A program made the translations under genes and the position numbers. DNA of 64,000 bases from positions 2,838 to 66,837 of the forward strand of contig JBEICQ010000001.1 of NCBI GenBank assembly GCA_040383885.1. The letters are read 5' to 3'. Shown here one piece after another: positions 12,649 through 29,209 of this stretch; within the stretch, counting starts at the first letter, position 1, and every line of letters begins with the position of its first letter. The DNA is from Flavobacteriales bacterium. Its GTDB lineage: Bacteria; Bacteroidota; Bacteroidia; UBA4408. The notes beneath the pieces are model-generated. The model was not told where the DNA came from. It saw nothing but the letters and a program-made list of their open reading frames with translations, and searched no databases.

Positions 12649-13012
12649 CCATGCCGTTACTTACATCAGGATAATGCATGATCGACGGGGAAGAGGTGTC
12701 AAAGGTAATGCTCACCACATCAAATCGGATGTCTCCGTTAAAATCAAGTGCTGCGGCAAAATTCTCGAGGGCCTCAGAAAGCAACTGCCATTTGCGTGAG
12801 GTGATAAACTCAGCGGGTTCTCCATGTATTGAATTGCTGCGGGTTTTTACCTCTATTCCCACCAAAAAACCTTCAAATAAGGCGATGATATCTACTTCTG
12901 CCTTACCAAATCGGTAATTGGTAGCCACTATTTCAAACCCTTTCTGCCTCAGATGATCGGCGGCAAGATGCTCTCCGGTGATTCCGGTATGAATGTGTGA
13001 ATGGCTTTTCAT
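12635..13012 (-). CDS. YraN-family (UPF0102) endonuclease-like protein
   Basis: GEHLAADHLRQKGFEIVATNYRFGKAEVDIIAL…GIEVKTR matches the YraN family. The start was moved to the internal ATG (MKSHS…), which makes an ATGA overlap with the upstream radical-SAM stop. Confidence 0.7.
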   Translation of the reverse strand: MKSHSHIHTGITGEHLAADHLRQKGFEIVATNYRFGKAEVDIIALFEGFLVGIEVKTRSNSIHGEPAEFITSRKWQLLSEALENFAAALDFNGDIRFDVVSITFDTSSPSIMHYPDVSNGMDEFE

Positions 13013-14031
13013 GTAAAGATTCGCGTTCCTTCTGAGCAATTTTTACAAATATCAAGCTCTGCCCTGCTCCTGAAAATTTTTTTTCGAAACTCCATATAAG
13101 GTTCAGAGAACCATATACTCCGAAAATCTGAGCGATTGATATTGCCAAACCGGTAACTTGCATCCTTGTCAAAACAGCAGGGTACTGCAAATCCATCCCA
13201 AGTGATTACAGGAGATTGCCACATTCTCCAACAGTGGTTATATAATTTATTTTTGATACGAAACTTTCCACTCTCCGTTTGGCTGTATCGTGTAAATGCA
13301 GGGTTTTGGGGGATAAGCGCATTCCCCTCCTGGAAATCATACACCTGAGCTGTTTTAAATCTTATTTCATCCACACCAATGCTGTTTGCAAATGCTTTGG
13401 CTTGATTTACTTCATGTTCGTTATGACTGGTAAGCAAAAACTGAAAAATAAGATATGGCGTTTTGCTGCGCATCTCTTTTTTCCACTTAACCAGCAATCG
13501 GGTTCCGCGAATCACTTTATCAAGCTCTCCTCCTATTCTGTAGCTACTGTAAGATTCCTGAGTCAGTCCGTCCAGAGAGATGATTAATCTGTCGAGACCG
13601 GAGAGGATGGTTTGCCTGGCGATATTGTCATCAATAAAATGTGCGTTGGTTGAAGTAGCAGTATATAGACCTGCCTGCTTTGCCATGGCCACCATTTTTA
13701 GAAAGTCTTTATGAATATAGGGTTCACCCTGGAAGTACAAATTGGCATACAAGGCTGTTTTCCCAATATCCTTCAATGCTTTTTCAATTGTTGCAGACTT
13801 GATATTTCCGGTATCGCGGGTAAAACTTCTTAATCCACTTGGGCATTGCGGACAGCGCAAGTTGCATGCAGTGGTTGGCTCCAAAGCGATACTTATTGGC
13901 ATTCCCCACACAATTGGTTTACGCATTATTCGCGACAGGTAATAGGAAACAATCACAAAAAGTGCATTCTTAAACCGTGCAGGCGTAAACTTACTAAGTA
14001 GGTTTATTGAATCGAGGATTTTCCTCATCAT
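13009..14031 (-). CDS. Radical SAM protein with a C-terminal SPASM-like Cys-rich domain
   Basis: CxxxCxxC motif TACNLRCPQCP and a GEP motif (YFQGEPYI). The C-terminal cysteines are WDGFAVPCCFD…CKNCSEG. Its start overlaps the upstream gene by 4 nt. Confidence 0.8.
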   Translation of the reverse strand: MMRKILDSINLLSKFTPARFKNALFVIVSYYLSRIMRKPIVWGMPISIALEPTTACNLRCPQCPSGLRSFTRDTGNIKSATIEKALKDIGKTALYANLYFQGEPYIHKDFLKMVAMAKQAGLYTATSTNAHFIDDNIARQTILSGLDRLIISLDGLTQESYSSYRIGGELDKVIRGTRLLVKWKKEMRSKTPYLIFQFLLTSHNEHEVNQAKAFANSIGVDEIRFKTAQVYDFQEGNALIPQNPAFTRYSQTESGKFRIKNKLYNHCWRMWQSPVITWDGFAVPCCFDKDASYRFGNINRSDFRSIWFSEPYMEFRKKIFRSRAELDICKNCSEGTRIFT

Positions 14032-17000
14032 ACCTTAATGCCTATGACCAAAACATCATCAATCTGTTCAAGCTTGCCCTGCCATCTTTCGAGAATTTCT
14101 TCGAGCTTTTGTAATTGCCTGTTCATGGGTTCAGACTGAAGTCCAAGCAAAACATTTTTAAGCTGGTTGTATTTGAATTTTTTTCCTTCGCTACCTCCAA
14201 ACTGATCGGCATACCCATCAGAAAAAATATACAACGAATCTCCGGGAATGAGTTCAAATGTATGCAGCGTAAACGGAGGCAAATCCTTGGTAAGAAAAAC
14301 CCCAACCGGGAACTTGTTCCCTTTGATTTCATATAGCTTACATCCGTTTGCGCTAAGCACGGGCATATGGCCGGCCAGGGGCTCAGCATTGGCAGCGCGA
14401 ATGATATACAGGGGATTGTTTGCACCTGCAAAATCAAGGGTGTATGTTGAGGGATTCCAACGAAGCAAGGCAATGTCCATCCCATCTTTTGAATCGCTTC
14501 CTGCCTCGTTTTGTTTCAGGTCTCTGATGATGTTGTCTCTCAGCTGGGTGAGCACTGCATCAGGCCTCGTGATGTCTTTTTCGTTTACAATCTCGTTCAG
14601 GTTCTCATTACCAAGTAAACTCATAAATGCTCCCGGCACTCCATGACCCGTGCAGTCAACAGCTGCAATCATGCGGTAATCGTCTCTTTGGGTAGCCCAG
14701 TAAAAATCTCCGCTTACTATATCTTTTGGCTTAAAAAAGATAAAACTTTGTTGAAAGGCACGCTGAATAAATTCCCTGCTTGGCATGATGGCATCCTGTA
14801 TCCGGCGGGCATAAAAAATGCTGTCTGTAATCTCCTTGTTTTTATTTTCAATCTGGGATTTCTGTTTTCTCAACTCACTCGTTTGGTTGTGAATAATTCT
14901 ATTGAGATTTTTGGTGTACAGTATGACTATCTGAACCACTAAGAACAGACCAAAAATTGAGTAAAGTAAATAGGCCCACCAGGTTCTGTACCATGGCGGC
15001 TTAATGGAGAAACGGAAGGTTTGGTTTATACTGAAATTGTGATAAATGTTCTTGCACTGTACTTTAAAAGTATAGGTGCCTTCACTGAGATTGGTGTAAA
15101 TGGCTTCCTTTCGGTTTGAGAATTCAGTCCAGCCTTTGTCATTTCCTTCAAGGATGTAACGGTATTGATTGTAATCCTCCCTGATGAAATAATTTGAACC
15201 CAACTTGAAGATGAGGTTATTGTTTTCGTAGGGAAGTTCGGGATAAGCTGTGGAGGGCTGACTAACAACCGGCGTTCTTACAGTTTCGGTAAGGAAAGGA
15301 TGTTGCACTTCCACGAAAAAATTACCGCTGAAAATTTCTCTTCCATTACTTACTATCCGTCTGATGAGACTTGAAAAGTTTTTCCGGACCTGAACATTTC
15401 CTTGTTTGTTGTTGTACACCACCGCACCAAAATTTCCTACAATCCAAAGATCTCCTGCCTTGCTGCAATAAAACTGTTTAACCTCAAATTCTGATGGAAA
15501 GATTCGAAAAGGATAAGACCTAAAACCCGAGAGCTTACCGTTAGCATACTCAAAAAAACCATGCTCCGGATATTCCTTTAAGCGGCCATTCACTTGGGTA
15601 TGTTTGATGGCTTCTACCCAATATCTGTTGCCTATGTATTCGCAGGATATGATTTGTCTCTTGTTTGCTGTTGAAAATTCCTTGCCAAAAAAATTGCTGA
15701 TTCTTGTGTATGCCTTGCCTCGCTTATCAACACCTGCGATGAGCGTATGGTAATCAGCGAAAACAAATACCTGTCCTTTGCCTCTCGAGAGCGTGATTTC
15801 TGATTCAGTTTCAGGTACAGGAAATTTTACGGTTTGCACCCTGTACTTCACAAATCTGAAACCAAGCGTGTTTTTAAGCAAGGGAGTAATACAGTAAAGT
15901 GCATTCTTAGAACACCAGAGATTCCCGTCTACATCTTCGTTTAATTGTCTGATTTCATCTTCCAACCCATCTACATATCCTCTTTTTATCCAGCTTCCGG
16001 AAACATATTCCATCACAGCCACTCCGGAACCAAGGCCCAGATAAACGATTCCGGGATATTTTTTTGAAGGTAAAATATTATACACCGCATCGTCTTCATC
16101 AAAAATTTTCACTGCATTTTGATCATTGATGGTGTAAAGTCCTTCTTTGTTTCCAAGGAGCAGGTGATTGCTTCCATCGGAGGATTCAAATACCGCAATC
16201 TTCCAGCATTCCGGCCCAACAGATGGCAAGGAATTCAGCTGGGGCTCACCCGGATTTTTATAAAAAAGACCAAGCGTGGTGGCAAAGTATAGCTTGTTTC
16301 TAAATTCAGTAACAGATTCTACTTTCCCTTTCAGGCCGTTGGTTTCATTGAAATACCTGAAAGGACTGTTTAATTCAATGGAAGTGATTCCATTTTCCAG
16401 GGCCAACCAAAGCAGATGATCCTCGTCCTCAAAAAGAAAATGGATTTTTTCGTTCTGGATTCCGCTTTTGGTATCAATGATTTCGAAGTGAGTGATGTCC
16501 TGGTCCACTATCATCAACCCTCCCAATAGCGTTCCAACAGCAATTTTACCATTCGATAGGCGAATGGCCTTGAATACTTTGTGTCGAATAAGCAAGGTTG
16601 AAATATCATTTTTAACTTTTTCAATTTTAATTTCTCTTCCCAGGCCCTCTTTATCTATGCTTCTGCTTCCTGCCGGCAAGGTAAATTTCAATAATCCCAA
16701 ATCCTGGCTGCCACCGTAGAGCGTATTTGGTCCATCAGAAAGTAAAAAATCGAGTCTGCTATCCTGCAGCAAATCGCTCCCTTTGATGGGAATCAGAGCC
16801 TCATTGCCCACCTCAACAAGTCCGATTCCTTTTTGCCGTATGTAGATATGGTTCCCGAACTGAAAAGCTGTGTGGAATTCTCCCTCTGATTGCCAAACCC
16901 TGAACTTCCCATTGCGTAGCCTGAGCACTTTTGTTTTTGAGATGAAGTACACTGCATCGGATGTAACAAAAGTAAAATACACATAACCGAGACTACGGTC

Positions 17001-17381
17001 GTTTGGATTTAACCTGTGTTTCAGACTGTGAAATTTCTGTTTGCCTTCGGCATTGATATCAATGTAACCGATATCATCTTGTAGTCCGGCAAAAACTAAT
17101 CCGGAGGATGAATCAAGAGCAAGAGAATTAAAAACCGTATTCCCCCAGTTCTCCCAGGTAACACCATCATATTGAAAAACACCTGTGTTGTAACCAAAGT
17201 ACAAAAGCCCTTTTTTGTCCTGTGTGATGGACCAGATTTGGGTAGGCGTTTCATATTCCTTGTCGGAATAATTTCTAATATGGTAAAGACCCTCTTCTTT
17301 GCAAACCCCGGAAGCAGGAAAAACAAGGGATAGTATAAAAAGTATGCCCGCAGGAAAAGGCAACCGCAATAGTAATTGCAT
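14028..17381 (-). CDS. Sensor PP2C (SpoIIE-family) protein phosphatase. Signal peptide, periplasmic beta-propeller/Y_Y_Y-type sensor region, single TM, coiled coil, C-terminal PP2C domain
   Basis: The 1117-aa product has an N-terminal signal sequence, repetitive propeller-like segments and a TM helix WWAYLLYSIFGLFLVVQIVILY. Coiled-coil segments follow. The PP2C motifs are AVDCTGHGVPGAFMSLLG and DGYADQFGG. Confidence 0.85.
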   Translation of the reverse strand: MQLLLRLPFPAGILFILSLVFPASGVCKEEGLYHIRNYSDKEYETPTQIWSITQDKKGLLYFGYNTGVFQYDGVTWENWGNTVFNSLALDSSSGLVFAGLQDDIGYIDINAEGKQKFHSLKHRLNPNDRSLGYVYFTFVTSDAVYFISKTKVLRLRNGKFRVWQSEGEFHTAFQFGNHIYIRQKGIGLVEVGNEALIPIKGSDLLQDSRLDFLLSDGPNTLYGGSQDLGLLKFTLPAGSRSIDKEGLGREIKIEKVKNDISTLLIRHKVFKAIRLSNGKIAVGTLLGGLMIVDQDITHFEIIDTKSGIQNEKIHFLFEDEDHLLWLALENGITSIELNSPFRYFNETNGLKGKVESVTEFRNKLYFATTLGLFYKNPGEPQLNSLPSVGPECWKIAVFESSDGSNHLLLGNKEGLYTINDQNAVKIFDEDDAVYNILPSKKYPGIVYLGLGSGVAVMEYVSGSWIKRGYVDGLEDEIRQLNEDVDGNLWCSKNALYCITPLLKNTLGFRFVKYRVQTVKFPVPETESEITLSRGKGQVFVFADYHTLIAGVDKRGKAYTRISNFFGKEFSTANKRQIISCEYIGNRYWVEAIKHTQVNGRLKEYPEHGFFEYANGKLSGFRSYPFRIFPSEFEVKQFYCSKAGDLWIVGNFGAVVYNNKQGNVQVRKNFSSLIRRIVSNGREIFSGNFFVEVQHPFLTETVRTPVVSQPSTAYPELPYENNNLIFKLGSNYFIREDYNQYRYILEGNDKGWTEFSNRKEAIYTNLSEGTYTFKVQCKNIYHNFSINQTFRFSIKPPWYRTWWAYLLYSIFGLFLVVQIVILYTKNLNRIIHNQTSELRKQKSQIENKNKEITDSIFYARRIQDAIMPSREFIQRAFQQSFIFFKPKDIVSGDFYWATQRDDYRMIAAVDCTGHGVPGAFMSLLGNENLNEIVNEKDITRPDAVLTQLRDNIIRDLKQNEAGSDSKDGMDIALLRWNPSTYTLDFAGANNPLYIIRAANAEPLAGHMPVLSANGCKLYEIKGNKFPVGVFLTKDLPPFTLHTFELIPGDSLYIFSDGYADQFGGSEGKKFKYNQLKNVLLGLQSEPMNRQLQKLEEILERWQGKLEQIDDVLVIGIKV

Positions 17382-21820: not shown

Positions 21821-22879
21821 TCAGAAGCAGATTCCCGCAACACAAATATCATCTACCTGAGGCAGTTTAACCCTCCATGAAAGATGCTTTTGTAAAAGAT
21901 TTTCTTTCTGTTCTTCGGGGGAGAGATTTGCAATAGCTAAAACCAGTTTTTGCATGCTGCCTGTCATAAATTTCTTGCCTTTGTCTCCTCCAAACTGATC
22001 GGCATAGCCATCCGTATGCAAATACATCCTCAAACCATCCTTGATGGAAATAACATGCTCGGTAAAATTTTCCCTGTCTTCGAAAACCAAACCACCGATG
22101 GCGTGTTTGTTGGGTTTTATTTCTGTAAATACGGTTTCATCCACAAGCCAGCATGGCCTGTTGGCACCTGCATATCGTATTTCTTTTTGCAAAGTATCCA
22201 TGCTTACCAGGGCAATGTCCATTCCATCGCGTGAAGCATACTCACCCCGGTCCTGCTTGAGCGTAATCCTGATGTTGTGGTCGAGTTCATCCAGAATGGC
22301 TGCAGGAGAAGTTACCCCTTTTTCTTTTACAATCTGGTTGAGCAGGGTATTGCCAATCATGCTCATAAATGCACCCGGCACGCCGTGGCCCGTGCAATCT
22401 GCAATGGCAAGCAAACAGGAATGAGGACCTGTTGCATGAAACCAGTAAAAATCTCCACTCACAACATCCCTTGGCAAATACAACACAAATAATCCCGGCA
22501 GGTGCTGGCGCATTTCCTGCATTTCGGGCAAGATAGAATGCTGGATGATACGGGCATACTCGATGCTTTCGGTAACCGAGCGGTGCTCTTCCTCAACCAC
22601 CATACGCAACTGATCAATTCTTTCTTTTTCCTGATGGATGCTTAAGCTTTGCTGCCAGAGTTTTTTTATCCTTTCATCGAGCCTGGATTTTTCCTGCTCG
22701 AGTTTTTGTTTTTCGGAAGCAAGTACCGCATTGGCTTCTTCAATTTTTTTACGCTCATTGTGCACTGCCTCACTCATCTGCCAGAGCTTGCGGTTTTTTT
22801 CGGCAACGGTCTCCCTCTCTGCTTCCAGCTTTGCAATGCGCTGCAATAAATCATTTATTTCTGAAGCAGAATCGGGCAT
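21821..22879 (-). CDS. Coiled-coil PP2C (SpoIIE-family) protein phosphatase, last gene of the DUF1987-TIR-STAND operon
   Basis: The N-terminal ~130 aa have heptad repeats (LLQRIAKLEAERETVAEKNRKLWQ…). The PP2C domain carries IADCTGHGVPGAFMSMIG and DGYADQFGG. Confidence 0.85.
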   Translation of the reverse strand: MPDSASEINDLLQRIAKLEAERETVAEKNRKLWQMSEAVHNERKKIEEANAVLASEKQKLEQEKSRLDERIKKLWQQSLSIHQEKERIDQLRMVVEEEHRSVTESIEYARIIQHSILPEMQEMRQHLPGLFVLYLPRDVVSGDFYWFHATGPHSCLLAIADCTGHGVPGAFMSMIGNTLLNQIVKEKGVTSPAAILDELDHNIRITLKQDRGEYASRDGMDIALVSMDTLQKEIRYAGANRPCWLVDETVFTEIKPNKHAIGGLVFEDRENFTEHVISIKDGLRMYLHTDGYADQFGGDKGKKFMTGSMQKLVLAIANLSPEEQKENLLQKHLSWRVKLPQVDDICVAGICF

Positions 22880-22906: not shown

Positions 22907-23866
22907 TTATTCTTTCTCAATTTCTTCAACAAAGGCATTCAGGTTTTTTTCATAGGTTTTGTGCCTTGCCTTTATCTCCAGGCCTTTTTGGGTAAAGTGA
23001 TCCTGGTCGGCCATATACTCTTCCATTTTAGGAGGAATGGTATTGCTGTATAAGCCGGGAGCCCAATGCAATTGTCTGCCCAAAAACCAAATGGCCAATA
23101 CGGAAATACATACAAATGTTTGCCTGTGCAGGGGTTGAAAAACCGGAAGATTATCAGGGGAAATTTGCTTTTTCAAATACATCAAAAACAAAGAAAGGCT
23201 GCAAACAAAAAACAATATCAATGCAAGAAAAGATATTGGATTTCCTCCGGGCCAGTGTTGTGTTTTAAACATGATTCCCATAAAACTGATTGCCATAAAC
23301 AAGTTAGCGGTAACATGAAATACACCCGGCAAAAAACCCTTCATGGATTTGTGTAACCGAAAAGAAAAGGCACGGAAGAATAAATAGAAAAAAACACAAC
23401 ACCCTAAAACAAAAACAAGGGAGGCACCCGGAACATGTTGAAACTTGGAAGCCATCCCCACCAAGAGCATGGACATAAGCAAGGGAAAGACAAATTTCTG
23501 TTGCTTTTTGGCAGCTATCATCAATGTAAGTAAGGATAATAAAGGCAGGAAAGCTGCAGCGGCAAAAACCCATTCATTTTGGATGACAAATGAAAATTGG
23601 GGAAACACGAAAAGAAAATGAAATATCCACCAGGGGAAGAGAAGCCACTTGATTTTTTTACTTCCCGGATGCAGTTCAAAAGCCTCCAGCAACAGGAGGA
23701 ATGAGAGGATTCGATAACACCAGGCCACCAATTGCAAACCCCAGGCGTTTTGAGCCATGTTGGAAAAAAAGCCCAGCAAGACCAAGAACAGAAGGGCGGT
23801 CATCTGGGTATATCTGGTTTGGGAGTTTTTCATGGTTTCTTCAATAACATCCTTACTTATTGCCAA
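22907..23866 (-). CDS. Polytopic membrane protein (~8 TM) with four internal 2-TM repeats, each ending in a (K/R)xQHWPG-like motif. No recognised family
   Basis: Repeated motifs are EAFELHPGSKK, ASKFQHVPGAS, MFKTQHWPGGNP and GRQLHWAPGLY, each following a pair of hydrophobic helices. The cytoplasmic C-tail is charged. The start overlaps the STAND gene stop by 10 nt. Alternative ATGs exist at 23833 and 23803. Confidence 0.6.
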   Translation of the reverse strand: MAISKDVIEETMKNSQTRYTQMTALLFLVLLGFFSNMAQNAWGLQLVAWCYRILSFLLLLEAFELHPGSKKIKWLLFPWWIFHFLFVFPQFSFVIQNEWVFAAAAFLPLLSLLTLMIAAKKQQKFVFPLLMSMLLVGMASKFQHVPGASLVFVLGCCVFFYLFFRAFSFRLHKSMKGFLPGVFHVTANLFMAISFMGIMFKTQHWPGGNPISFLALILFFVCSLSLFLMYLKKQISPDNLPVFQPLHRQTFVCISVLAIWFLGRQLHWAPGLYSNTIPPKMEEYMADQDHFTQKGLEIKARHKTYEKNLNAFVEEIEKE

Positions 23867-26800
23867 TTGTTTATTACGGAATTGTATCTGTCAATAGAAA
23901 AGTTCTTCAGATTGGGTGTGTACAATTGGTTTCTCTTGTTGTAATGCATGATCATCCAGGTATTCAACCAAAAACGCATGCCTGATATTTCCTTATCAGC
24001 AATTAGTTGCTCTGCATCATAGAGCACACCCCTGTCAACGAGCCCCGAAAAATAACTGTACCTGTGCCTATCGTTTCTGCCTTCGGTATTAAAGGCAATG
24101 CGCCTGGCAAAACCCTCACAATCCTCTCCTCCTATTTGTGCCAGCATCCTCATGTACTTCTGTGGCATTTTGTTGAGCCGGTGTTTTTCCTTGGCAAACA
24201 GGTGTTGCATCAGGGGCAGGGCATTTTCTTCGTATCCCTTGTCTATAAAAGTTTGGGCCAACATCAGTACATCATCCTGCCTTATCAGGTGTAAGCGGCT
24301 ACTGTCGAGGAAAGTGGCCACTTCTTTTGCGCGCCCTCTTAGAATCAATGTTCTGCAAAGCCCGGGTATGTTAAACACATCAAAATACCTGTTTTCTGCT
24401 GGTATGCTGATTTCCTTTTTTTGGGGCAAGGCTTTTTTTCCGTACAACATGGTTACCCAATCAAAATAATTGGTGCGCGCAATTTCACTTGTTGCAAATG
24501 TTTTCTTAAGCAGTTTATGATAAAAAGATGCCAACTCCGGTTTGGTTTCAAAAAAGTTTTCATCAAGCGCTTGTCCTTGTATGGCTTTAAGCACATCCCC
24601 AGTCAAATACATGGTATCAGCAAGTCCAGACATCGCATAAAACTGTTCATTGTTGTTGTACACTTCACTTTGGGGCCAAGGAATTTCATCAGGATTATTT
24701 TCGTTCCAGTAAGACACATAAAATCGTCCATCAAAAGGATTTGCAGAGGACTCATAAAACGCCAAAAAAATACCTGCAAAGGTTCCTGGTATGGAATAAA
24801 TAAAATCACCCCCTGACATATCAATGGATGTATTGGATGCTTTACCTATGGGGCTGTTTTTGTTTTCTATTAGATTAAATTGCTGCCATGAGGTAAGTAT
24901 GGCTGCTTGTTCACCTGCCGTGTCGCCTGCATGCTTCAAATAAGCAGCGTATTTTTTGTGGTACAACGCCAGCAAAAGTTTTTGCTGGTTTGTATTCAAT
25001 CCTCTTTTCGTTATTGAGGCCATCAGGTATTCATGGGCAGCGTCTACTGCTTCTTTCGGCCAAAAATACTGGCACATGGGAGGGAATCTTTTTTCAATAT
25101 CCTGTCCACTTAAAAGATCCTGTACTGAGTAATACAACATTTTTACTGAGAGTTTCCGTATCCTTTCCTCCTTTCCGCAGATGCGTTCAATGGTCTTAAA
25201 GGTTTCGGAGGCCGTGTGTTTTTTGTTGGAAAGAAGTGTCCCGAACAAGAGCAGGTCGTCAATGGTTTTTAGCTTGCCTTCCCGGTTAAAACCCTGTTCG
25301 TTTTGAAAGGTATTGACAAAATCATTCCTTGAGGCGTATTCCTGTCTGTGGAAGAACAAAATTTGTGGGACAAATAAGCCGTTGTTTACATAGCCCAGCG
25401 GAGCAGCTTCGGTTTTTTCTGCATCAAATAACTTTCTGCATTTTTCCTGCAGGGCTGACACATCTCCATGGGTATCGAAGTAAGCAGACAACAAAGGATG
25501 CTCATGCCTCAGCATACAGTTGGCAGCAAACAGGGGATTGAAAGAAATTTTTTCTAGAAATACTTTTTTTGGATTTTTTTCCTTGTATCGAATCACTGCC
25601 AGCATCAGTTGTTCGTTTATGGCATGCGTCTTTTCTTTTAGCTCTTCTATGTCCGGTACACCGGCAATGCTTAACCATAAGAGCAGTTTCGTCCATACAT
25701 GTGCCGTCAGGATATTTACCTTCCCGATTTTTTGCTTGTTCAGTTGTATTGTCTGCTCTTCTGCAATTTTTTGAAAGGAGGAAAAACCATGGCCGGCGAG
25801 CTTGCTCAGAAACTGCAAGTCCCTGCTGTAAGAGGCAGTATCGATATCCTTCCTTAAAGACCAAACAATGGCTTCCTTGATGAGCGTAAACTGCGTAGAG
25901 TCTTCCATGTTGCGGATGGCCTCCATAAACACTTCTGCATCTGCCGAGTCGCGGTTGTAGCGGCTGTATTCTATCAAAAAGGCGGCTTTCTTTTTTTCGG
26001 AGATGTAGGGGTTATTGATGTTCTCCAGGTTAAATGCCATGACCCTGTCTATGACCTGGTCATTTTGTTTGGAGTACCAGTCGAAATAAAAATACATGCA
26101 GGAACAAAGCACCAGGACGACGCCGGCATGCATAAGCAGGCGGTTGGCGCCATAGGCCAGCACAAAGCGGCTGAGCATCAGGTTGCGGGCACTGGCTTTG
26201 ATAAACACCCCGGCTTCCTGCAATTCTTTTTTAAAATGTATTTTTCTTGCTTGCTTTTCCTCTCCTGACTCATCGTACTTCAACAACCACCCTGCCGAAG
26301 GTCTTTTTTGGGCAAACCAGTGCTCAAAATAATTCAGTGAGCCAATCGGCAAGAGGTAGCCTCTTTCTTTTTTGTTGGTATACCAACGCTGCATCTGCAC
26401 CAAAAAATCGGCATACACCATGCGGTCGTCGTATTCCTGCCGGGACAATTCCTGCAAAAGTTCCCAGTTACGAATCAGGCTCTCGTGGCTGATGTCGAGC
26501 AGGCTGTCGGGAGAAAGAACCGGCTGTTCATTGTCATAGGGCTTGATGAGGGTATTTCCCTGCTTTCGGAAATGAGAAACAAACACCGCCACATGTTCAG
26601 GGGTAAAATCCTGTTCAGCGATTATTTCCGCTATCTCAGCTACTGTCATGCGGTTGCGCACATACCTTCCGGCATCTGCTTTTACCAGGCACTGCAAAAG
26701 GGTATTTAAGATATAAGCGCTTCTGGAAACCCAGGGCATCTCTGAATACTTGCTTTTTACCTCTTCCAGTGTTTTTTCATATAACTCGCCTGCATGTGCA

Positions 26801-27837
26801 TTCAGCACATTCTCCAGAGAGGGACGGTCAAAATATTTTCTTTTCTGATCGCTTTGTTGTTCCAACCATGTGTCAAATTCCTTTCGCTCGTTCTCATCTA
26901 AAAAATCCGGTGGCACTCCTGCCAGTTTCACCAGGGAAGGAATGTCCATGGGTTTTTGTGTTTCTCCCTCTCCATAGGACAAGTGCCACAATTGGTTGAG
27001 TGCATGCTGCAAAACCGGCAACTGATCAAAGCCGCTGCCAATGGCATTTACAAGGGTTTCTGTAAGCCTGGGCGTAATGGCACCCCCGGCAAGTTTTGCC
27101 GGCTCTGCAATCACTTGCTGCAACTCTTTGCGCTTGAGTCGTGGAACAAAAAACTGTGAAAAGCCAATCATCTCGGGCAGGCCGCGGAAAGCCGCACATT
27201 GTCCGATATAATCGCTGCGCATGGTGCATACCACATAGACAGGCAGCGATTGTGCATGAGCAATCTTTGCTGTTTCAATCAGCAGGTTTAATACGAGTTG
27301 TGCTTCATCGCTCGGAACTCCGTGGCTAAAGTTTTCGGGATTGGTAAAGAACTCTTCAAACTGGTCGGCAAGGATAATGAGATTGGCACCTTTTTTTTCG
27401 AGATTTTTTTTGCCTTCCTCATCCGTGTTCTGGTATGCTGAACTTTGGGGATCCACAAAAAACCCTGAGGATGCATACAATTGCAGAAGGGCCGAGAATC
27501 CATGCTGCAACTTTTCTTTTACCTGTTTCTCCTCCATCTTTAGTGCAGAAGCTACAGCCTTTGCAAGCATTTGTAGCGGAGAACGCGAAGGCGTGAAATC
27601 AGCCAGAAGCCATGAATTGAAGCGTGCTTTAAAAAATCCTGCCCTGGCCCTTGGAATCAAACCGGCATAGGTGAGTGAAGATTTTCCGTCGCCACTGGCA
27701 CCGGTGATCATCAAAAACCTGTTCTGTTCGAGCAGTGTTACAGCTTTGGCAGTATGGGCATCTCTGCCTTTAAAAAAGATGGATTCGTCCTCGGTAAACG
27801 GGCGCAATCCGGGATATGGACAAATGAGTGGTTCCAT
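23857..27837 (-). CDS. nSTAND-type (STAND-superfamily) P-loop NTPase, 1326 aa, with a mid-protein TM helix and a long alpha-helical C-terminal region
   Basis: The N-terminus MEPLICPYPGLRPFTEDESIFFKGRD matches the conserved nSTAND lead-in. Walker A is FLMITGASGDGKSSLTY and a Walker B-like motif is LIILADQFEEFF. A predicted TM segment is LLMHAGVVLVLCSCMYFYF. About 800 aa of helical repeat-like sequence follows. Confidence 0.75.
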   Translation of the reverse strand: MEPLICPYPGLRPFTEDESIFFKGRDAHTAKAVTLLEQNRFLMITGASGDGKSSLTYAGLIPRARAGFFKARFNSWLLADFTPSRSPLQMLAKAVASALKMEEKQVKEKLQHGFSALLQLYASSGFFVDPQSSAYQNTDEEGKKNLEKKGANLIILADQFEEFFTNPENFSHGVPSDEAQLVLNLLIETAKIAHAQSLPVYVVCTMRSDYIGQCAAFRGLPEMIGFSQFFVPRLKRKELQQVIAEPAKLAGGAITPRLTETLVNAIGSGFDQLPVLQHALNQLWHLSYGEGETQKPMDIPSLVKLAGVPPDFLDENERKEFDTWLEQQSDQKRKYFDRPSLENVLNAHAGELYEKTLEEVKSKYSEMPWVSRSAYILNTLLQCLVKADAGRYVRNRMTVAEIAEIIAEQDFTPEHVAVFVSHFRKQGNTLIKPYDNEQPVLSPDSLLDISHESLIRNWELLQELSRQEYDDRMVYADFLVQMQRWYTNKKERGYLLPIGSLNYFEHWFAQKRPSAGWLLKYDESGEEKQARKIHFKKELQEAGVFIKASARNLMLSRFVLAYGANRLLMHAGVVLVLCSCMYFYFDWYSKQNDQVIDRVMAFNLENINNPYISEKKKAAFLIEYSRYNRDSADAEVFMEAIRNMEDSTQFTLIKEAIVWSLRKDIDTASYSRDLQFLSKLAGHGFSSFQKIAEEQTIQLNKQKIGKVNILTAHVWTKLLLWLSIAGVPDIEELKEKTHAINEQLMLAVIRYKEKNPKKVFLEKISFNPLFAANCMLRHEHPLLSAYFDTHGDVSALQEKCRKLFDAEKTEAAPLGYVNNGLFVPQILFFHRQEYASRNDFVNTFQNEQGFNREGKLKTIDDLLLFGTLLSNKKHTASETFKTIERICGKEERIRKLSVKMLYYSVQDLLSGQDIEKRFPPMCQYFWPKEAVDAAHEYLMASITKRGLNTNQQKLLLALYHKKYAAYLKHAGDTAGEQAAILTSWQQFNLIENKNSPIGKASNTSIDMSGGDFIYSIPGTFAGIFLAFYESSANPFDGRFYVSYWNENNPDEIPWPQSEVYNNNEQFYAMSGLADTMYLTGDVLKAIQGQALDENFFETKPELASFYHKLLKKTFATSEIARTNYFDWVTMLYGKKALPQKKEISIPAENRYFDVFNIPGLCRTLILRGRAKEVATFLDSSRLHLIRQDDVLMLAQTFIDKGYEENALPLMQHLFAKEKHRLNKMPQKYMRMLAQIGGEDCEGFARRIAFNTEGRNDRHRYSYFSGLVDRGVLYDAEQLIADKEISGMRFWLNTWMIMHYNKRNQLYTPNLKNFSIDRYNSVINNWQ

Positions 27838-27838
27838 G

Positions 27839-28726
27839 CTATGCAGCGCTGCCCTCCTTTGCTTTTTCGTATTGCACTTTTATTTCAAGTGGAATTAAAA
27901 TACCATCAATAATCATACACAATACCCTGGGGGCTTTTAATTGAACATTCCGGTTGTTTTCCGGGTTGGTATCTCCAATCAAAAGGATGGGTGTTTTCAT
28001 GGAGGCTCCACCTGCGCGTTTCCATATTTCCTGGGTAAAAGGAAGGGCCCAGTCCGAGGAGGTTTTGAAGTACACGACTGCCAGGCGGCTTTTAGAAATT
28101 TGTTGTGTGCAATAGGCTGCATAATCGGTATCGCTGTTTTGCACAATACTGATATTATGTGTTTTTACCACATCTCCCAGCATGTCGAGCACATCGGCTG
28201 CATCAACTTCATCAAGGTGGTTAGATATAAAAAACACCTCCGTTTCGCTGAGGTCATAGTGGATTTGTTTTTCTTCGGAGAACTCCTGCCTCACATCATC
28301 TGCAAACTCAATAGGTGATGACACATTGCTAAAGGTCATCTGCTCGGAGAGCGCATTCCTAACCAGGCTAATGAAAGCCGATTGTTTGGGCTCGGGGATA
28401 AAGCTCCCCACATTGGGTGGATACCAGATAAAAAGTTTGAAGCCGGGTTTGTTTTGTATATAATCCAACAGGATGCGAAACTGAAACTCCGGCAGAGAAA
28501 AACTGCCTTGTAAAAAATGATGAACCGGGCCATATTCGCTGCTGAGCATGCAAACTGCTCCGCTGCATTGCTCAAGTGTTGTGAGTACCTCCTGCGGAAA
28601 TGCAGAAAGGTTGGCAGCATCAAAAACAGGACTCAGAGAGGAGATGCCTGCATTGCTAAAAACCTGGCCAAGGCTTTGTAAGTGTTGATGTCGTTGTGCG
28701 GAATCATCCGCAAAAAAGCAGAGCAT
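27839..28726 (-). CDS. Protein with two tandem TIR-like (flavodoxin-fold) modules
   Basis: Module 1 has MLCFFADDS…LGQVF…AVCMLSSEYGPVHHFLQ. Module 2 has VFFISNHLDEVDAADVLDMLGDV…AVVYFKTSSDWALPFTQEIW. Both follow the TIR strand/helix pattern (hydrophobic-FISYS-like strand, …L…L..G…F.D, …hhhS..Y..S.WC..E). There is a 1-nt gap to the STAND start and a 3-nt gap after the DUF1987 stop. Confidence 0.45.
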   Translation of the reverse strand: MLCFFADDSAQRHQHLQSLGQVFSNAGISSLSPVFDAANLSAFPQEVLTTLEQCSGAVCMLSSEYGPVHHFLQGSFSLPEFQFRILLDYIQNKPGFKLFIWYPPNVGSFIPEPKQSAFISLVRNALSEQMTFSNVSSPIEFADDVRQEFSEEKQIHYDLSETEVFFISNHLDEVDAADVLDMLGDVVKTHNISIVQNSDTDYAAYCTQQISKSRLAVVYFKTSSDWALPFTQEIWKRAGGASMKTPILLIGDTNPENNRNVQLKAPRVLCMIIDGILIPLEIKVQYEKAKEGSAA

Positions 28727-28729
28727 AGA

Positions 28730-29113
28730 TTAGTCTTCCACCGATTCCAGTGTAAAGGGATGTTTAACCAGGTTGGACATGTCCTCACCGGCTTCAAGCA
28801 TATCCGTATCGTTGGCATCATAGCGCCAGGTTACCTGTAATTTGGTTTTGCCGTCATTGTTGAGGGCCACCATTTTTTTGAGCATTTCTATGATGATTTT
28901 TGCGCTGCTTGTATTAAAGTACTCCAGGTAAATGATCAGGTGAGTGGCCGGATGGGGGGAACCTGAGTAAGTTTCAATCCAATGCTTTACGGGACCGTAA
29001 AACTTGATGGTATTTTCAGGGATTGATTTGCCTTTGAATTCAAGTGTTCCGGATGCATGATTCAGTGATACATAGGGGGTGTTCACTGTTTCAGTAATTT
29101 CGAGTGTTTCCAT
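28730..29113 (-). CDS. DUF1987 (SiaC-like) protein, probable partner-switch phospho-target
   Basis: METLEITETVNTPYVSLNHASGTLEFKGKSIPENTIKFYGPVKHWIETY has the DUF1987/SiaC signature. The internal ATG was chosen as start. The longer track ORF adds a hydrophobic leader translated from the divergent promoter region. Confidence 0.65.
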   Translation of the reverse strand: METLEITETVNTPYVSLNHASGTLEFKGKSIPENTIKFYGPVKHWIETYSGSPHPATHLIIYLEYFNTSSAKIIIEMLKKMVALNNDGKTKLQVTWRYDANDTDMLEAGEDMSNLVKHPFTLESVED

Positions 29114-29209
29114 TTTAGCCAGAAGTTTGGGTAAATATATTAAAATCTGTTTTACATTTAGGAGGAAATACACCAGGTGGAGATAAAAAAAAGAAAGCAA
29201 GGTTTTCTG

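Follow-up and report, generated by a model that had tools for sequence, protein, structure and literature searches.

Two GldL-like transmembrane hairpins in a predicted polytopic membrane protein encoded next to a STAND NTPase in Bacteroidota

What could be the role of a membrane protein that is encoded directly after a large STAND NTPase, is labeled 'hypothetical protein' in all public sources, and yet displays a set of loops with a common His-Pro-Gly pattern? This question is raised by an open reading frame in a 64,000-nucleotide stretch (hereafter, the window) of contig JBEICQ010000001.1 from a Flavobacteriales bacterium (GCA_040383885.1). The earlier note on this DNA, made from the letters alone, described a polytopic membrane protein of no recognizable family, with four internal two-helix repeats. 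The frame is indeed present at 22907..23866; it lies on the minus strand, which that note had left unstated. All four strings that were quoted as repeat motifs are found in the translation, namely EAFELHPGSKK (aa 50-60), SKFQHVPGAS (aa 129-138), FKTQHWPGGNP (aa 189-199) and RQLHWAPGLY (aa 253-262), and four occurrences of H-x(0-2)-P-G were reached in 0 of 20,000 shuffles that preserved the composition (a single shuffle gave three, and none gave more). The numbering used here is that of the most likely start, the ATG at 23833, which gives a coding sequence of 308 aa (22907..23833, minus strand). This choice follows from a 71%-identical homologue (P0002) that is also 308 aa long, from the gene call of a second protein of the same cluster (P0157, locus L020), which begins at the equivalent Met, and from the 41-member family alignment, which begins there as well. 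The alternative start, a TTG at 23866, would add 11 aa, and it is only with this start that the proposed 10-nt overlap with the STAND stop codon is obtained; the ATG leaves a 23-nt gap. Promoter and terminator scans, with models that do not cover Bacteroidota promoters, gave results at chance level.

The family of this protein is confined to Bacteroidota among the sequences searched here. A word-indexed homology search returned a single non-self relative, and the remaining family was reached by an exhaustive profile search; the counts given below refer to 41 full-length members, with 109 partial hits kept as a separate set. Hydropathy and an AF2 model agree on nine TM helices followed by a 45-aa C-terminal helical tail, so that the description as a polytopic inner-membrane protein stands. 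The model reaches a pLDDT of 90.5 from the 41-sequence alignment (47 from a 2-sequence alignment), and the predicted topology is N-in, C-out, with 2, 3, 3, 4 and 3 Lys or Arg residues in the inside loops vs 0, 0, 1, 1 and 1 in the outside loops; almost no mass is left on the cytoplasmic side. It had been considered that the protein might belong to a known transporter family in which the loops are incidental, but no solved fold resembles the AF2 model, and no whole-chain match to a transporter, a channel or any other fold was found among solved structures.

The most conserved stretch of the family lies outside of the loops that drew attention originally. It is a signature with the consensus GFFANFAQNDYG, located where TM1 reaches the periplasm (aa 21-32, GFFSNMAQNAWG; 23738..23773, minus strand), in which G21, F23, A27 and N29 are present in 41 of the 41 members, and A24, N25 and Q28 in 38 each. 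At the other end of the protein (22910..23134, minus strand), TM9 (aa 234-254) is followed by a periplasmic motif, A-P259-x-x-Y262-S-N-x-x-P267, and by a tail that consists of two helices in the AF2 model (aa 268-307); P259 is conserved in 40/41 members, Y262 in 38/41 and P267 in all 41. The string RQLHWAPG, which had been taken for the fourth motif, sits in this region, and its His and Trp are not conserved in the family. We also asked whether TM9 and the tail could represent a GldM-like TM helix fused to the chain together with its first domain, and rejected this interpretation for lack of evidence: alignment with the part that follows the hairpins in 52 long fusion-type proteins gives an HHalign probability of 0.8%.

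So how many repeats are there? The duplication of a two-helix unit is real, although it is two-fold rather than four-fold. In pairwise shuffle tests, the similarity of the second and third units, R2 and R3, is significant (z = 6.2), that of R3 and R4 is marginal (z = 3.2), and R1 yields nothing; family-profile HHalign aligns R2 with R3 at 98.3% (E 2e-14), whereas every pair that includes R1 or R4 stays at or below 5%. A marginal similarity between TM1 and R4 (48%) was not accepted. R2 occupies aa 109-162 (23348..23509, minus strand), with the turn K130-F-Q-H133-V-P-G-A, and R3 occupies aa 163-224 (23162..23347, minus strand), with the turn F189-K190-T-Q-H193-W-P-G. The motifs, thus, are located not at the end of a hairpin, as originally proposed, but at the turn inside it, between the two TM helices. 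The expected retention of the His-Trp-Pro-Gly loop in homologues is borne out for R3 (K in 33/41 members, H and W in 39/41 each, P in 36/41); of the R2 turn, K and G are retained by 38 members each, H by 23 and P by 16. Three of the four loops lie on one face of the membrane, the periplasmic one, whereas the R1 'HPG' (aa 55-57; 23663..23671, minus strand) is placed on the cytoplasmic face by the positive-inside rule, given the three Lys/Arg residues of the loop LHPGSKKIK. This is a look-alike rather than the conserved motif (H in 3/41 members, P in 4/41), and the His residues of R1 and R4 are, by the family alignment, lineage-specific.

The core unit shared by R2 and R3 consists of two helices joined by the periplasmic turn F-K-x-[QM]-H-W-P-G-A, and it does belong to a family. 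Profile-level evidence identifies it as the N-terminal TM hairpin of GldL (PF22827), and we are confident of the homology of R2 and R3 to this hairpin at the level of sequence profiles. Taken alone, the 308-aa protein scores 22.0 bits against PF22827 (E 1.9e-4; aa 181-206, the R3 turn), below the gathering threshold of 24 bits, and the precomputed match to this family in a close homologue is marked 'faint'. The comparison becomes much stronger when families are aligned: HHalign against 156 GldL_N-type hairpins gives 98.8% for R2 (E 8e-17) and 99.4% for R3 (E 3e-21), vs 1.3% for R1 and 1.2% for R4, which show no homology. These reference hairpins were drawn from the set of partial hits, where 91 of the 109 proteins match PF22827; among the full-length members 12 of 41 do, and the best E-value is 7.6e-20. 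The top PDB matches of the family profile are GldL (7sau_C, E 8.7e-4), PorL (7sat_C) and again GldL (7sax_C), with the alignment to the GldL/PorL chains centered on FKxxHW.GA in the R3 region, and a two-hairpin relative matches 7sau_C at E 2e-5. In GldL, the periplasmic loop meets the periplasmic domain of GldM through two invariant residues, K27 and H30, and gliding is impaired when either of them is replaced by Ala (K27A, H30A; 10.1101/2020.05.11.089193). The Lys and the His of the GldL_N turn are present in both hairpins, and K190/H193 of R3 and K130/H133 of R2 appear to correspond to K27/H30 of Flavobacterium johnsoniae, an equivalence established via the 7sau alignment and residue spacing rather than by direct alignment to the F. 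johnsoniae chain. A protein that had only been called hypothetical is thus given a domain identity and specific residues, K190, H193 and the GFFANFAQNDYG motif, to which a function might be attached.

These assignments bear on the idea that the protein itself is the sensor and binds a metal, a lipid or a small ligand at a site formed by its His-Trp-Pro-Gly loops on one side of the membrane. The near-invariance of the R3 His (39/41) is compatible with such a site, as is the clustering of Lys, His and Trp at the periplasmic interface in two adjacent hairpins (the third His being confined to the lineage), and interface Trp and His residues could touch lipid head groups. Nothing specific was found in its favor, however: in GldL, the one homologue that has been studied, this pair of residues contacts another protein, GldM; no multi-His site is conserved in the family, given that the R2 His is retained by 23 of the 41 members and those of R1 and R4 are not conserved; and the same turn recurs in hundreds of architecturally different proteins, including fusions with the GldM_1st domain, which suggests a structural or docking role. 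We consider a ligand site quite improbable.

Could the 308-aa protein then be a motor component? To our knowledge, the only documented role of the GldL hairpin is in the ring of the type IX secretion/gliding motor, and an ion-driven stator of the GldL/ExbB/MotA kind, or a sensor of the protonmotive force, is one alternative to consider. In this case, one chain would form a pseudo-ring that conducts protons and mechanically displaces the TM helix and the periplasmic domain of the STAND protein. The hairpin is homologous to the part of GldL that builds the ring of a proton-driven motor with 5:2 stoichiometry, the nine TM helices come near the ten of a GldL pentamer, and the STAND partner, with one TM helix and a large predicted periplasmic region, is laid out like GldM. 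What speaks against proton conduction is the fate of the proton-coupling Glu of GldL (E49 in F. johnsoniae), which aligns to Ala. There is no acidic residue in the second helix (TMH2) of either R2 or R3, the D/E frequency does not exceed 0.01 at any TMH2 position among 183 paralogous hairpins, so that the Glu is missing in essentially all of them, and the family consensus contains no other conserved intramembrane acidic residue. Moreover, there are only two GldL-like helix pairs, and the STAND TM helix shows, on inspection, no GldM-like sequence. An NCBIfam search, where the GldL/PorL motor proteins are represented by TIGR03513, returned no match for the protein, and gldK, gldM and gldN are encoded neither near it nor in any of 19 related loci. 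Given the lack of the proton-coupling Glu, of the cytoplasmic domain and of a gldM partner, we have to conclude that it is not a GldL motor subunit, and a stator or a protonmotive-force sensor of this type appears highly improbable.

Other considerations, in particular the genomic context, might help in understanding what the hairpins do instead. The gene directly upstream (23857..27837, minus strand) encodes a 1326-aa nSTAND1 NTPase (PF20703, E 3.5e-63). Its NTPase domain spans aa 7-492; a single conserved hydrophobic helix comes next, and the remaining ~740 aa at the C-terminus are helical. The helix, a predicted single TM segment (aa 567-585, LLMHAGVVLVLCSCMYFYF; 26083..26139, minus strand; Kyte-Doolittle 1.95), has a basic N-flank and a conserved C-flank, YFYFD..KQN, and aligns with an equivalent helix in 6 orthologues (KD 1.8-2.6), with no second conserved hydrophobic segment in the orthologue alignment. 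The C-terminal ~740 aa are, accordingly, predicted to be periplasmic, a placement derived from hydropathy and the charge rule only. Directly downstream of the hairpin protein (21821..22879, minus strand) lies the gene for a 352-aa SiaA-like PP2C/SpoIIE phosphatase with an N-terminal coiled coil (PF07228, E 5e-17). Upstream of the STAND gene, in the same operon, a conserved 295-aa protein is encoded (27839..28726, minus strand), with no relative in the PDB and no matched family except for a weak hint of DUF4062 (E 0.087); its orthologues are located upstream of STAND in L001, L006, L008, L013 and L019 (E ~1e-71). The first gene of the operon (28730..29113, minus strand, ATG 29113) codes for a 127-aa SiaC-like (DUF1987) phosphoprotein (PF09345, E 3e-34) that keeps the phospho-acceptor context FNT68SSAK, to be compared with the SiaC phosphopeptide LLYLNT68SSIK of Pseudomonas aeruginosa (PMC7647112), and that has a 96.9%-identical counterpart in L020 with a gene call of the same 127 aa.

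Gene order was compared in 19 Bacteroidota loci. The STAND gene is found directly upstream of the hairpin protein in 12 independent loci and no locus clearly contradicts this arrangement: the upstream open reading frames in L005 and L014 are STAND genes cut by contig ends rather than exceptions. The earlier suggestion of a functional link to the STAND NTPase is therefore sustained by conserved gene order. The PP2C gene is directly downstream in 14 loci, is displaced in L009, and is not adjacent in three (L005, L007 and L014). The SiaC-like gene is adjacent only in the lineage of the window; in L001 and L013, it is on the opposite strand at a distance of 4-5 kb, and no copy was detected in L006 or L008. 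The conserved place beside STAND and PP2C suggests that a hairpin protein has been reused in a signaling module.

Such a module might operate as follows. In the motor, the GldL hairpins pack around the TM helices of GldM. By analogy, the K-x-x-H-W-P-G turns and the hairpin helices of the 308-aa protein would bind the single TM helix and the periplasmic region of the STAND protein; where the neighboring PP2C has a TM anchor, as in most lineages, this would be bound as well. An N-terminal TM helix is indeed present in all 15 PP2C orthologues elsewhere (KD 2.4-3.6); in the lineage of the window the anchor is lacking (the copy in a close relative is also 352 aa long), so that docking of the PP2C cannot be intramembrane there. 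As regards the protein-protein contacts, the direction of signaling and the output of the system, we infer that the periplasmic domain of STAND would sense an envelope signal, which would be coupled to the switching of the cytoplasmic NTPase and to the action of the PP2C on the SiaC-like phosphoprotein (Thr68). Other proteins carry the same hairpins, a TM helix and a GldM_1st domain in one chain, which indicates that the hairpin goes together with a single-pass partner that has a periplasmic domain. The reading that we tentatively adopt, with a likelihood that we would place a little short of even, is that the 308-aa protein serves, within the membrane and the periplasm, as the subunit that docks or couples the components of a STAND-PP2C-SiaC-like signaling module. 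Counting against it are the missing TM anchor of the PP2C in the lineage of the window, the lack of a SiaB-like kinase in the operon and the fact that the adjacency of the PP2C and SiaC-like genes is not universal.

A bolder version of this scenario, which we regard as rather unlikely, would make the protein a single-chain derivative of the GldL ring, devoid of proton coupling and wrapped around the STAND TM helix (in most lineages, also around the PP2C anchor), with its turns clasping the periplasmic part of STAND in the way that GldL holds GldM. If true, the protein and the fusions of three GldL_N hairpins with GldM_1st would form a Bacteroidota-wide class of GldLM-derived transmembrane signaling devices, and this would be the first STAND/NLR-like NTPase that reads a periplasmic signal via a dedicated polytopic co-receptor. 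At the other extreme, the protein might be a passive membrane chaperone or anchor that stabilizes or localizes the single-pass STAND and PP2C proteins and passes on no signal. The same synteny and the same TM-anchor evidence fit this alternative, as does the near absence of cytoplasmic mass, and the sequence data hardly separate it from a docking or coupling role. The conservation of the periplasmic motifs (GFFANFAQNDYG, FKxQHWPGA and AP..YSN..P) combined with rapid change in the protein and in the STAND C-terminus nevertheless argues for a specific functional interface. Compared with a close relative, the hairpin protein is 69.5% identical and the C-terminal part of STAND (aa 901-1326) 57.9%, vs 87.6% for the STAND NTPase domain; these two are the fastest-evolving parts of the operon, the other proteins of which are 82-97% identical. 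We consider a purely passive role unlikely.

Fast evolution and the position directly after the STAND gene would also be expected of an effector. Under this alternative, the operon would be a STAND-type conflict system, for defense or abortive infection, in which the STAND protein would oligomerize on sensing an invader, and the hairpin protein would form a pore or otherwise disrupt the membrane, causing depolarization. DUF4062 often accompanies STAND NTPases, and the weak hint of this domain in the 295-aa partner adds to the case. Moreover, nSTAND1 NTPases are reported to take part in conflict systems whose effectors vary (10.1101/2023.09.22.558884). However, in a search of PADLOC-DB 2.0 with the five operon proteins, no model matched four of them and nothing relevant was found for the fifth: the coiled coil of the PP2C weakly matches JetC (E 1.8e-4 to 5e-3), which we dismiss as coiled-coil noise, and with it the assignment to a known defense system. 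The operon has housekeeping genes around it and is found at the same site in two related genomes; the pairing of a PP2C with a SiaC-like protein suggests reversible regulation rather than killing; the hairpins are tightly hydrophobic, without a polar lining, and no pore-like or transporter fold was matched; and the STAND sensor region appears to be periplasmic, whereas phage components would be cytoplasmic. An effector of this kind is, in our assessment, as unlikely as a passive anchor.

If coupling by the docking subunit is real, a motor module would seem to have been reused in signal transduction, STAND switches would be linked to Ser/Thr partner-switch signaling, and there would be a testable mechanism for envelope sensing by a STAND/NLR-like ATPase. 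Apart from this functional interpretation, the GldL hairpin, with its signature turn and without its Glu, is present in a large set of unannotated membrane proteins of Bacteroidota.

How does this module compare with known systems? With the nSTAND1 (PF20703) systems, which have been described as serving in conflict or in antigen sensing, it shares a full-length nSTAND1 domain and a presumed sensor region that is C-terminal and fast-evolving. The STAND protein of the operon differs by its conserved single TM helix and by its pairing with a polytopic protein and PP2C/SiaC instead of a peptidase or TIR-type effector, and neither it nor the hairpin protein has a PADLOC match. The cytoplasmic arm of the operon is reminiscent of SiaABCD of P. 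aeruginosa, which consists of the PP2C SiaA, the kinase SiaB, the phosphoprotein SiaC and the diguanylate cyclase SiaD (PMC7647112, PMC8457831). Both have a SiaA-like PP2C domain and a SiaC/DUF1987 protein with the N-T68-S-S context, that is, a phosphatase and a phosphoprotein with a Thr68 acceptor, as judged from sequence; SiaA is membrane-anchored, as is the operon-type PP2C in most lineages. The NCBIfam scores, though, are far below the SiaABCD equivalog cut-offs (199 vs 700 bits for the PP2C against NF038263 SiaA, and 76 vs 150), and no SiaB-type kinase or GGDEF/SiaD family member was found among the five operon proteins or ten flanking genes, so that the operon differs from SiaABCD in having neither the kinase nor the cyclase. 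Sensing would differ as well: SiaA relies on its own N-terminal region, and here the TM-anchored STAND together with the GldL-hairpin protein is proposed to take this role.

On the membrane side, the closest characterized relatives are GldL and PorL (PF22827; TIGR03513; 7sau, 7sat, 7sax), the inner-membrane ring subunits of the proton-driven GldLM/PorLM motors. Common to both are the 2-TM hairpin and its topology, the periplasmic turn F-K-x-x-H-(W)-x-G-A, the Lys of which is preceded at a distance of four residues by a conserved Gly, and the restriction to Bacteroidota. GldL and PorL contribute one hairpin per subunit, whereas the 308-aa protein has two in tandem within a nine-TM chain; GldL has a C-terminal cytoplasmic domain and Glu49, and our protein lacks both, ending in a 45-aa tail that is predicted to be periplasmic; and its neighbors are STAND and PP2C where those of GldL are gldK, gldM and gldN. 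A further related group is that of multi-hairpin GldL_N proteins and fusions of three GldL_N hairpins with GldM_1st (P0061, P0116, P0044, P0119 and P0149 among others), which the profile search of the present family reaches at E 1e-4 to 1e-12; literature searches on the turn motif and on GldL paralogues brought up no published description of either this multi-hairpin/fusion group or our family. The two groups share the consensus K-[IVL]-[QM]-H-W-P-G-A, an F-L-P element in TMH2, the absence of the Glu and a periodicity of about 60 aa. The multi-hairpin proteins consist of 2-4 regular hairpins, often with a GldM-like TM helix and D1 and, in some cases, with an N-terminal cytoplasmic domain, whereas the family described here is set apart by the GFFANFAQNDYG signature of TM1, by its extra non-hairpin helices and by its short periplasmic tail.

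The four motif strings from which the earlier note started are all found in the translation of an open reading frame on the minus strand, at 22907..23866, across which the plus-strand frame is stop-rich; the product, hereafter the target, is named 'hypothetical protein' in all sources. As listed from TTG 23866, this frame and the stop of the preceding gene, which encodes an nSTAND1 NTPase of 1326 aa (STAND), overlap by 10 nt, as the note remarked. The in-frame ATG at 23833 is, however, the more likely start because the homologue P0002 (71% identical) is a protein of 308 aa with the same initial Met, because the gene call of P0157, a relative of the same cluster (69.5% identical), begins at the equivalent Met, which in its own locus lies 32 nt past the STAND stop, and because the family alignment begins there as well. 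With this start, the overlap gives way to a 23-nt gap.

Is the four-fold internal duplication deduced from these motifs genuine? The pattern H-x(0-2)-P-G, present four times in 308 residues, was reached at that number in none of 20,000 shuffles and so is not due to chance. Among repeat units cut around the motifs (R1, aa 28-85; R2, aa 109-162; R3, aa 163-224; R4, aa 230-268), pairwise tests revealed clear similarity between R2 and R3 (z = 6.2), marginal similarity between R3 and R4 (z = 3.2) and no match of R1 to the other units of the target. An exhaustive profile search yielded 166 relatives; 41 full-length members, 16-36% identical to the target except for P0002, were aligned, and sub-profiles for R1-R4 were derived from this alignment. 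HHalign comparison of these sub-profiles connected R2 with R3 (probability 98.3%, E 2e-14), whereas neither R1 nor R4 exceeded a probability of 5% against any other repeat. Across the 41 members, the R3 motif is highly conserved (F in 38, K in 33, H in 39, W in 39, P in 36) and that of R2 is partially so (K in 38, H in 23, P in 16, G in 38); the R1 His is found in only 3, and in R4 His and Trp are not conserved, the conserved residues being instead P259 (40), Y262 (38) and P267 (41). It is against this pattern, with the His nearly universal in one unit and rare in another, that a ligand or metal site at these loops has to be judged, and we regard such a site as quite improbable. Conservation within the family peaks not at any of the His motifs but in the stretch GFFANFAQNDYG where TM1 ends, with G21, F23, A27 and N29 invariant. 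The profile comparisons and column counts thus indicate two real repeats, R2 and R3, and two units that, judging from the alignment, are look-alikes restricted to the lineage of the target; the duplication stands, but the four-fold symmetry does not. A short family form, P0023 (260 aa, 7 TM helices), retains the TM1 motif FANFAQNDYG, TM2, two hairpins, the last TM helix and the YS..PPKMEEL tail and is devoid of the TM3-TM4 pair, which therefore looks like a topology-preserving insertion.

Hydropathy and a confident AF2 model built from the 41-sequence alignment (pLDDT 90.5, pTM 0.85) concur on nine TM helices, followed by a tail of two helices, and the motifs occupy not the ends of the hairpins, where the note placed them, but the turn that joins the paired helices of each. 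The counts of K/R in alternate loops (2, 3, 3, 4, 3 vs 0, 0, 1, 1, 1) imply an N-in, C-out topology, in which the R2, R3 and R4 turns are predicted to be periplasmic and HPGSKKIK of R1 cytoplasmic. A Foldseek search of the PDB with the whole-chain model returned no specific match (best E 1.1, TM-score 0.32, to designed helical repeats), so the target has no known transporter fold, the possibility that the note had named against its own reading.

The note recognised no family, yet the R2/R3 unit is very probably a GldL-type hairpin, a domain already known (Pfam GldL_N, PF22827) from the ring subunit, GldL or PorL, of the type IX secretion/gliding motor. Against 156 independent GldL_N-type hairpins, HHalign probabilities were 99.4% for R3 (E 3e-21) and 98.8% for R2 (E 8e-17), compared with 1.3% for R1 and 1.2% for R4. 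The GldL_N match of the target falls exactly on the R3 turn, at 22.0 bits, just below the cut-off of 24; GldL_N is matched by 12 of the 41 family members and by 91 of 109 partial hits (best E 7.6e-20), and 71 of the partial hits also match NCBIfam GldL. The best PDB matches of the family profile are GldL 7sau_C (E 8.7e-4), PorL 7sat_C and GldL 7sax_C, with the family 'FKiqHWPGa' aligned to 'FKILHWTGA', and the clean two-hairpin relative P0149 matches 7sau_C with E 2e-5. Cryo-EM and mutagenesis of F. johnsoniae GldLM place the Lys/His loop of GldL in the periplasm, in agreement with the R2/R3/R4 turns of the target; the two invariant loop residues (K17/H20 in the text of that paper, K27A/H30A in its strains and figures) appear to contact the periplasmic domain of GldM, the partner of GldL, and their substitution strongly impairs gliding (10.1101/2020.05.11.089193). 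The spacing Y-x13-K-x-x-H in 7sau fits Y13/K27/H30, and hence K190/H193 in R3 and K130/H133 in R2 would correspond to K27/H30.

The consensus of 183 hairpins in the retrieved proteins, G-x-L-F-K-[IVL]-[QM]-H-W-P-G-A ... G ... F-L-P, includes essentially no acidic residues in the second helix, and the proton-coupling Glu of GldL aligns to Ala; these hairpins, often in tandem at an exact 60-residue spacing, therefore form a Glu-less paralogous branch. The missing Glu disfavours a proton-driven stator, a role that, the GldL-type hairpin notwithstanding, we consider highly unlikely. In 27 of the 109 partial-hit proteins, Glu-less hairpins are fused to a GldM_1st domain. Five of the retrieved proteins (P0044, P0061, P0069, P0116 and P0119) combine in a single chain three GldL_N hairpins (KIMHWPGA) exactly 60 aa apart, one more TM helix and a GldM_1st domain matched with confidence (at up to 99 bits); an N-terminal cytoplasmic 'DHICC' domain is also seen in some such proteins, and 2 match NCBIfam perm_prefix_1. 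Such proteins resemble GldL-GldM fusions that lack the proton-coupling Glu, and they seem not to have been described so far. Our literature search found no paper on Glu-less GldL hairpin repeats or on a STAND-hairpin-PP2C module.

The target is the fourth of five closely spaced minus-strand genes, flanked by housekeeping genes: a SiaC-like DUF1987 protein (28730-29113), a conserved 295-aa protein with no assigned family (27839-28726), STAND (23857-27837), the target and a coiled-coil PP2C most similar to SiaA (21821-22879). The SiaC-like frame is listed from TTG 29200 (28730-29200), but ATG 29113 (127 aa) is the start indicated by the gene call of a homologue and by the Pfam match. In a related genome, whose neighbouring proteins are 83-97% identical, this operon is found at the corresponding position. 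Across 19 additional loci, taken from genomes and metagenomes of Bacteroidota, STAND lies directly upstream in 12, the upstream gene is ambiguous in one and the upstream sequence is too short in six, which supports the partnership that the note proposed; PP2C lies directly downstream in 14, is displaced by ~4 kb in one and absent from the available downstream sequence (at least 2 kb) in three, and one locus is uninformative. The 295-aa gene precedes STAND in every contig extending that far. It is strongly conserved (E ~1e-71 against orthologues) but has no PDB relative, only a weak hint of DUF4062 (E 0.087). The operon encodes neither a SiaB-like kinase nor a GGDEF protein, and no SiaB-type kinase gene lies near the SiaC-like gene in the window; in two loci (L001 and L013) the SiaC-like gene is on the opposite strand, 4-5 kb away. 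Two metagenomic loci (L016, 309-2583; L019, 5688-7768) have two tandem target-family genes between STAND and PP2C, with a short PP2C-like fragment between the copies in L016. The independent contigs of L005 and L014 (nt 1-20) end within ~6 nt of one and the same position inside STAND, at ...TRTVMKYGA, shortly before its TM-coding segment, which could be fortuitous or reflect an assembly break that recurs, for example at an upstream variable or repeated region. The window also encodes a second, unrelated PP2C signalling protein (14028-17381, minus; 1117 aa; Reg_prop, Y_Y_Y and SpoIIE domains), followed, with a 4-nt overlap, by a radical-SAM/SPASM gene (13009-14031, minus).

Both neighbours of the target are membrane proteins in most lineages. 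STAND carries a single strongly hydrophobic helix (aa 567-585; 26083-26139, minus); its position is the same in six orthologues, its N-side flank is basic, C.Y[FY]YFD...KQN is conserved on its C-side, and no second hydrophobic segment is conserved. This implies a membrane-spanning protein, with the NTPase probably cytoplasmic and the helical C-terminal region of ~740 aa periplasmic. An N-terminal TM anchor is present in 15/15 PP2C orthologues adjoining family members; the PP2C of the window and that of its close relative (both 352 aa) are coiled coil from the start and have no TM segment. Between the window and this relative, divergence is fastest in the target (69.5% identity) and STAND aa 901-1326 (57.9%), in contrast to the SiaC-like protein (96.9%), the 295-aa protein (91.2%) and the NTPase domain (87.6%).

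The GldL hairpin packs around the single TM helix of its partner, and the Lys/His turn touches the partner's periplasmic domain. The GldM_1st fusions pair the same hairpin with a single-TM partner in cis within the Glu-less branch. Given, in addition, a STAND neighbour with one TM helix and a large extracytoplasmic region, we propose, at somewhat less than even confidence, that the target is an intramembrane and periplasmic docking or coupling subunit of a TM-STAND sensor, linked to a PP2C/SiaC-like switch. The same neighbourhood could be read as that of a membrane effector triggered by STAND, or the target could be a passive anchor; we deem the one unlikely and the other equally so. The observation of the earlier note is confirmed in part and its interpretation supported in part. 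Under the docking proposal, the hairpins would engage the sensor in the membrane and periplasm, in most lineages the TM anchor of PP2C would be docked too, and envelope sensing would be coupled to the phospho-switch. The SiaC-like protein of this switch shares with Pseudomonas aeruginosa SiaC the phospho-acceptor context N-T68-S-S (FNT68SSAK here; PMC7647112).
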